NCBI RefSeq assembly: GCF_003334305.1
Contig: NZ_QOWS01000001.1
DNA length: 64,000 nt
Origin: Escherichia coli
Lineage (GTDB): Bacteria; Pseudomonadota; Gammaproteobacteria; Enterobacterales; Enterobacteriaceae
Strand: one strand, 5' to 3'
The translations under genes and the position numbers were made by a program. Positions 21,938 through 22,358 of the stretch are shown here, one piece after another. How positions within the stretch are numbered: position 1 is the stretch's first letter; the number at the start of each line of letters is the position of its first letter. Under the pieces are notes generated by a model, which was not told the DNA's origin, made no database searches, and worked only from the letters and a program-made list of their open reading frames with translations.

Positions 21938-22144
21938 TCAAATTTTTCCATTCACCACGAGTTGTTCCGTACACGTTTGTAGTAAAAACAGTGGACTGCC
22001 TTCTACCGGCTTTTCTTTAGCCAGCAACGAAATCTGTCGATAGAAAGTTGGTTCGAGAGGAACGGAACACAATTCACCTGCAATGCTTTTCAGCGTTAAC
22101 TCTGGTTGTAAGGCGATGCCTAATCCCTGTCGAATAAAATTCAT
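21938..22144 (-). pseudogene. yfaH: LysR-family regulator C-terminal fragment (yfaH-like remnant)
   Basis: 68-aa ORF resembling a LysR substrate-binding domain C-terminus with no HTH N-terminal domain upstream; K-12 has a pseudogene at this position. Confidence 0.5.
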
Positions 22145-22358
22145 CGCTGTATCCGCCTGATTAAATTCACATTTTATCTGCTGGGCGCACTATTAGTGGT
22201 AGTGGCTGGTGGAATCTATGCGCTGCAAATGAAGGGTAAAAGCGGTGTCAAGCTAGTAGTGGCAAAAGAAATTCATTAATACGACACGTTTCATTAAGAT
22301 TTTCCTCAGGTAACCACCTATAGTCATTGTCGTTAATAAAAATAACAGGCGATAGGGT

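Follow-up and report, generated by a model that had tools for sequence, protein, structure and literature searches.

The DNA analyzed here, hereafter the window, is a 64,000-nucleotide stretch of the Escherichia coli chromosome (assembly GCF_003334305.1, contig NZ_QOWS01000001.1). Open reading frames and family models define the gene order glpT–glpQ–[LysR/MFS scar]–inaA–yfaE–nrdB in the part of interest. The glpT gene occupies positions 19457-20815, inaA is found at 22359-23009 on the plus strand, and yfaE (23063-23317) and nrdB (23317-24447) are both on the minus strand. The glpQ reading frame ends at 21896; it is listed from an upstream TTG (20763-21896), and the GlpQ model starts at its residue 20, approximately at position 20820. 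The gap between glpQ and inaA has a length of 462 bp and shares 100% identity with the same region of E. coli M8 and 98% with that of K-12 MG1655.

Just past the glpQ stop codon, at 21904-21931, there is a strong hairpin with a 12-bp G+C-rich stem and a 4-nt loop (RNA folding: −22.5 kcal/mol, z = −5.5 compared with shuffled sequences). This terminator-like structure is located between the convergent glpQ gene and LysR remnant, at the left edge of the variable segment, and the homology to the "empty" and O157-type alleles described below breaks at about 21926-21929, inside or just past it. The hairpin was not called by a simple terminator scan because it has no T-run. The scan for sigma-70 promoters and intrinsic terminators in both strands of the 21850-22400 region returned no candidates, a result that is uninformative for an activator-dependent promoter such as that of inaA. 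No RNA family was found when the 21700-22600 region was compared to Rfam (E ≤ 1).

Remnants of Two Genes between glpQ and inaA

A 68-amino acid ORF that starts with ATG, the historical "YfaH" protein, is located at 21938-22144 on the minus strand. A preliminary description of this DNA identified it as a C-terminal LysR-like fragment. The ORF is real, but the homologous remnant is longer. When the intact LysR protein of E. coli O157 was used as tblastn query, its residues 213-292 matched window positions 22180-21941 with 87.5% identity (E 1e-46). The remnant consists of 80 rather than 68 codons (21941-22180) because the ATG of the ORF sits inside it; including the stop codon it spans 21938-22180 on the minus strand and corresponds to residues 213-292 of the intact 292-amino acid protein, with 36 bp (22145-22180) beyond the ATG. 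The retained portion is a piece of the C-terminal effector-binding domain, which when complete has about 200 residues and of which only the last 80 are left, and it does not include the helix-turn-helix (HTH). The tblastn search with the intact orthologue indicated that residues 1-212, including the N-terminal winged HTH, are missing from the region as well as from the rest of the 64 kb. As claimed in the preliminary description, no HTH-bearing reading frame was found upstream of the 68-amino acid ORF. All other tblastn matches in 21850-22400 had E values of at least 0.2, and a permissive search (word size 2, E up to 100) for additional pieces of the LysR and MFS genes detected only the two remnants described in this section.

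The 68-amino acid ORF matches the NCBIfam model NF007272 (PRK09729) over its full length (residues 1-68 of 68; 3.4e-49, 164.8 bits, cutoff 139). NF007272 is an equivalog model for a 68-amino acid "hypothetical protein", and an intact 299-amino acid LysR protein from another E. coli strain matches it as well, over residues 226-291. Judging from these comparisons, the similarity of the ORF to LysR C-termini is real and far beyond chance, and the homology indicates that the fragment descends from a genuine LysR gene at the orthologous locus.

The 214 bp that separate the ATG of the ORF from inaA were originally regarded as about 210 bp of non-coding DNA. This is correct for the 79 bp at 22280-22358, which are intergenic. 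The rest belongs to genes: the 36 bp of the LysR remnant already mentioned and 105 bp of a second remnant, the 3′ end of an MFS transporter gene. A tblastn search using the MFS protein from O157:H7 located residues 363-396 at 22175-22276 with 94% identity (E 3e-18). This remnant occupies 22175-22279 on the plus strand, includes 34 codons plus the stop codon of a 396-residue protein, and encodes a hydrophobic C-terminal stretch, YLLGALLVVVAGGIY, plus the tail. Nothing but residues 363-396 is left of a full-length MFS transporter, a protein of about 400 amino acids with 12 membrane-spanning helices. The LysR and MFS remnants overlap by 6 bp, which accounts for the arithmetic of the deletion discussed below. 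Thus, the tblastn check proposed in the preliminary description to look for further degraded LysR pieces yielded none of them and uncovered the end of another gene.

PGAP, the annotation pipeline of NCBI, labels the two pieces partial pseudogenes. In K-12 and M8, the segments equivalent to window 21938-22180(−) and 22175-22279(+) are labelled [quoted passage not shown] and "hypothetical protein, incomplete, missing N-terminus", respectively. The K-12 LysR pseudogene, yfaH (b2238), has the same locus, junction and 80-codon remnant, and differs from the window (98% identity over 459 bp) by allelic point differences only. The feature is therefore already known, as K-12 yfaH and as PGAP partial pseudogenes, and must be considered an ordinary one, in agreement with the low priority that it had been assigned. 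Only incidental uses of yfaH were found in the literature on yfaH or b2238, one of them as a marker site at approximately 10 kb from gyrA, consistent with its position here (PMC2714960).

The Intact Allele and the Deletion Junction

Two complete genes are present at this location in other genomes. The gene order in the intact locus L002 is glpQ, LysR gene (9020-9919, minus strand), MFS gene (10071-11261, plus strand), and inaA. The intact LysR proteins have 292-299 amino acids, the divergently encoded MFS protein has 396, and the two genes are separated by 151 bp. E. whittamii and another Escherichia lineage also have the intact pair between glpQ and inaA, and in a further Escherichia lineage (L004), the locus sequence of which ends before glpQ, it adjoins inaA. 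The intact regulator matched generic LysR models, with many LysR equivalog models aligned over residues 1-270. MFS models matched residues 10-378 of the transporter, the closest being the PRK05122 and PRK12382 subfamily models, both below their cutoffs. A LysR regulator that controls its divergent neighbour is the usual layout, and the lost genes probably were a typical pair of regulator and divergent target, in which the LysR protein would control the MFS gene. The intact pairs of O157:H7, IAI39 and ECCNB12-2 (WP_000176738.1 or WP_000176733.1, with WP_000660231.1 or WP_000660219.1) are orthologous DNA located at the same glpQ-inaA position, with 95-96% identity to the window in the retained parts. 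The difference is that the central 1,879 bp are gone from the window. The lost DNA consists of LysR codons 1-212, which encode the HTH and most of the effector-binding domain, of MFS codons 1-362, and of the 151-bp region with the divergent promoters that separated the two.

The alignment of the window with L002 consists of two blocks, 21800-22185 with L002 8904-9287 (94.8% identity) and 22173-22500 with L002 11155-11483 (96.0% identity). Since both flanks are collinear and there is nothing between them, the window is the intact allele minus its centre. The 8-bp sequence TTTATCTG occurs twice in L002, inside the LysR gene (9276-9283) and inside the MFS gene (11155-11162), with 1,879 bp from one copy to the other. 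Both copies are also present in O157:H7 (L030), and in more distant Escherichia lineages one or both are off by a base. In L002 and L030 the LysR copy is found in the context ...AAATTCATAT-TTTATCTG-TGGGGTAAT... and the MFS copy in the context ...CCGAATGA-TTTATCTG-CTGGGCGCAC... The window has a single surviving copy of this direct repeat, at 22173-22180, in the context ...AAATTCACAT-TTTATCTG-CTGGGCGCAC..., which is collinear with the left flank of the left copy and the right flank of the right copy. Therefore, the features of a microhomology-flanked deletion scar are all present: the flanks are collinear with those of the intact allele, nothing is inserted, and exactly one copy of the repeat is located at the junction. 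Nothing was found that contradicts the deletion itself. We are highly confident that the glpQ-inaA segment is the scar of a single deletion of the intact LysR/MFS pair that left behind the tail ends of both genes. Since two half-genes cannot arise by insertion, the direction from intact to scar is unambiguous. The proposal that the remnant marks a past rearrangement was correct, and the rearrangement is a deletion between 8-bp direct repeats. The LysR gene had also been described as decayed; it is indeed dead, but it was not eroded gradually, as the 1,879-bp deletion cut it in one step.

The distribution of the alleles was assessed in 5,426 complete E. coli genomes, where a genome was counted as a scar carrier if one continuous alignment across the junction covered at least 80% of the scar segment. 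The scar allele, which is the one found in the window and K-12, was present in 3,105 genomes (57%). The intact LysR and MFS pair was found at this spot in 1,217 genomes, O157:H7 included; it corresponds to a class of megablast matches that cover only the left 63% of the query. An "empty" allele, in which glpQ and inaA are separated by about 200 bp, was found in 1,057 genomes, such as a Nissle derivative, leaving by subtraction about 47 genomes with other forms. Seven scar copies were aligned at the junction (the window, K-12 and five others), and the junction and the derived substitutions were common to all seven. This shared structure points to a single origin of the scar. The allele is old and widespread.

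Decay of the Remnant and Its Possible Expression

A comparison of the LysR remnant with the intact allele over 75 comparable codons showed 10 non-synonymous and 5 synonymous differences. The resulting pN/pS was 0.59, as opposed to 0.04 for glpQ and 0.12 for inaA in the same genome pair, and to 0.09-0.12 for the same 75 codons when intact orthologues were compared with each other. The remnant is under relaxed constraint. Seven residues that are invariant among the intact orthologues have been replaced in the scar lineage (Y→C, H→Q, P→A, I→M, S→N, L→Q and T→S). The stretch ...DTAISFIRQG... of the intact orthologues reads ...DTAMNFIRQG... in the scar alleles. The derived I-to-M replacement creates an ATG, and the start of the 68-amino acid ORF is therefore a by-product of decay. 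The scar genome GPEC349-628 has an additional 1-bp deletion that frameshifts the remnant, which PGAP labels "frameshifted". With the promoters, the start codons and the HTH domain gone, together with 91% of the transporter, the remnants have no plausible function.

Another possibility to consider is that YfaH is encoded by a real small-protein gene, a LysR effector-binding fragment co-opted once the deletion had occurred. In favour of this idea, six of the seven sampled scar alleles keep the ORF open, a Shine-Dalgarno-like AGGCGG is located 8 nt 5′ of the ATG, a dedicated 68-amino acid NCBIfam equivalog model exists, and qRT-PCR showed a 7.7-fold change of the yfaH transcript when NlpE was overexpressed in a cpxR mutant (PMC9600279). 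However, the pN/pS value, the seven replacements at otherwise invariant residues, and the frameshift in one strain argue against a selected protein. The native promoter was deleted, no sigma-70-like site was detected in either strand between 21850 and 22400, and the current PGAP annotation calls a pseudogene. The effector-binding fold of LysR regulators has two subdomains, and an 80-residue piece of it is, on general grounds, unlikely to fold alone. Furthermore, yfaH has served as a neutral linkage site, with a marker put in its place (PMC2714960). We consider it very improbable that the ORF is a functional gene; some expression of it is a residual possibility, made less likely by the frameshifted allele and by the pattern of substitutions. 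There is an equally small chance that the scar is partly active and is for this reason kept in more than half of E. coli, either through a functional YfaH micro-protein or through an MFS 3′ end that tunes the stress-inducible inaA promoter in a manner different from the intact and "empty" alleles.

A Proposed Path from the Intact Pair to the Scar

The ancestor of the scar allele carried an intact minus-strand LysR gene and a divergent plus-strand MFS gene with the 151-bp shared promoter region between them. A single RecA-independent misalignment between the two copies of TTTATCTG, one in each gene, would remove 1,879 bp and keep one copy of the repeat, with replication slippage or illegitimate recombination as the candidate process. 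The deletion took the start codon and the promoter of each gene, the DNA-binding domain of LysR and approximately 91% of the transporter. It left two tail-to-tail 3′ fragments that have no plausible function and now drift neutrally. The flanking elements that matter, the terminator hairpin of glpQ and the spacer upstream of inaA, survived the event. We infer slippage between the 8-bp repeats from the junction; an 8-mer common to two sites located 1.9 kb apart could be a coincidence if another end-joining process was responsible for the deletion. Classical studies of lacI reportedly described deletions between short direct repeats that occur by slipped misalignment. The similarities to the case presented here are the 8-bp repeat at both ends, of which one copy is kept, and a junction free of foreign DNA; the differences are that the event at the glpQ-inaA locus is ancient and that its mechanism is deduced from sequence only.

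An alternative in which a mobile element or some site-specific recombinase removed the segment, instead of microhomology slippage, appears more improbable still. It is true that the locus suffers IS1 events in other strains, as illustrated by the truncation of the MFS gene in GDSC2227PM and the insertion in a neighbouring orphan gene in EC19. At the window junction, however, no IS sequence, inverted repeat, filler or foreign DNA was found; the flanks abut exactly at one 8-bp repeat, and IS1-adjacent deletions normally leave the IS in place. Finally, the idea that the LysR gene is intact and only looks truncated through a sequencing or assembly frameshift, in which case a single correction should recover it, can be discarded because about 640 bp of coding sequence are missing where only 214 bp are available before inaA, the missing part is nowhere in the window, the junction is common to all seven aligned copies, and the same structure is present in 3,105 independently sequenced complete genomes.

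These results confirm a long-annotated K-12 pseudogene as a clean, single-step deletion scar and show that the adjacent stretch of about 210 bp is not featureless. The locus is a tidy example, of modest value, of gene loss most probably mediated by slippage between 8-bp repeats.

Allelic Diversity at the glpQ-inaA Locus

The glpQ-inaA interval is multi-allelic (window 21897-22358; L002 9001-11341; L003 8898-9098). The scar is found in K-12, B and O104:H4, the intact pair in O157:H7 and IAI39, and the "empty" allele in Nissle, and these strain names suggest an association between allele and lineage. The existence of intact, scar, "empty" and IS1-disrupted forms at the same spot could be exploited as an E. 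coli lineage marker.

The "empty" allele includes about 70 bp without a match in the intact allele (L003 8930-9000, from the Nissle derivative; L007 694-935), or about 110 bp in strain E69. It retains 20 bp from the 3′ end of the MFS gene and approximately 13-30 bp similar to that of the LysR gene. In Citrobacter and Intestinirhabdus, glpQ directly adjoins inaA, and the intact pair is present in other Escherichia lineages. The evidence is mixed with respect to the nature of the "empty" allele, which may be the ancestral pre-insertion state, as in Citrobacter, or the product of a second, larger deletion.

Some genomes harbor an extra gene, coding for a 356-amino acid orphan protein, between glpQ and the LysR gene or its remnant, as in O157:H7 DEC4E (L038 5656-6726, minus strand) and EC19 (L039 4758-6605). 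In EC19, which has the scar allele, an IS1 copy interrupts this gene. The G+C content of the orphan gene is 30-34%, compared to about 50% in its flanks, and no family was identified when the O157 version was searched against Pfam and NCBIfam. It looks like a horizontally acquired islet. In GDSC2227PM (L031 2033-3504), IS1 has taken the place of the LysR gene and of the 5′ portion of its MFS neighbour, which is reduced to a 513-bp 3′ fragment; this event is an independent route to the loss of the pair.

Outside Escherichia, a Pseudocitrobacter metagenome-assembled genome (L012 2689-4879) has an MFS gene that is 86% identical to that of E. coli and adjoins inaA; its LysR partner shows only 63% identity, and there is no glpQ in the vicinity. 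The LysR/MFS pair is missing from two other Pseudocitrobacter genomes (L010 and L011). Across genera, the cassette seems to be either mobile or subject to repeated loss. Two other sequences recovered in the comparisons deserve a comment. A 280-bp contig labelled Alkalicoccobacillus porphyridii (L029), with very low coverage, includes an InaA fragment 96-99% identical to that of E. coli and probably represents contamination of a Bacillaceae assembly with E. coli DNA. A sequence labelled E. coli (L028) combines GlpT and NrdB of 99% identity with an InaA of only 83%, a combination suggestive of an inaA allele that is divergent or introgressed.

There are also variations within the remnant itself. 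About eight substitutions between the window and K-12 (L001) are clustered in 40 bp near the 3′ end of the remnant (21942-21980), and a single difference was found in the remaining approximately 380 bp. In the 21942-21980 segment K-12 is closer than the window to the intact alleles (...QMCMEQLV...), which suggests a recombination patch inside the pseudogene. In addition, an A/T run close to the 3′ end of the LysR gene varies in length by 1 bp (L002 9020-9045 versus window 21938-21965 and L030 1254-1280), and this variation alters the C-terminus. The LysR protein of ECCNB12-2, with 299 amino acids, reads into the glpQ terminator hairpin, and both the 292-amino acid protein of O157:H7 and the window remnant end in ...GKI.

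The inaA Upstream Spacer

The 79 bp at 22280-22358 (plus strand) are the native inaA upstream spacer, since the same spacer precedes inaA next to the intact MFS gene. The three E. coli alleles all conserve it, and it can still be recognized in Citrobacter and Intestinirhabdus. Judging by its position, it presumably holds the inaA promoter and 5′ UTR. The inaA gene is a target of MarA, SoxS and Rob (PMC5257004) as well as of GcvB (PMC9299463). A candidate marbox-like sequence, ACGACACGTTTCATTAAGAT, is located at 22281-22300, followed 18 nt downstream by a −10-like TATAGT (22319-22324). The marbox-like site, matched at 22281-22299, has three mismatches to the 20-bp consensus AYnGCACnnWnnRYYAAAYn, and at that stringency there are 123 matches in the window versus 135 expected. 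The match is not above chance, and therefore the assignment of the inaA promoter must be taken as tentative.

In Citrobacter and Intestinirhabdus (L008, L013-L018 and L023) the motif TCTTAAGATTTnCTTAAG, which includes two CTTAAG hexamers, was observed about 60-40 bp 5′ of inaA, just before a TATAT(T) −10-like element. The E. coli counterpart, CATTAAGATTTTCCTCAGG, at window 22292-22310, is degenerate. The inaA promoter may thus have a regulator site of which this motif is the conserved form. The marbox consensus is matched best elsewhere in the window, by three minus-strand sites with a single mismatch each (51401-51419, 19320-19338 and 34589-34607). The first of them, ACAGCACTGAATGTCAAAA, may be the micF marbox, if ompC-micF is located there.
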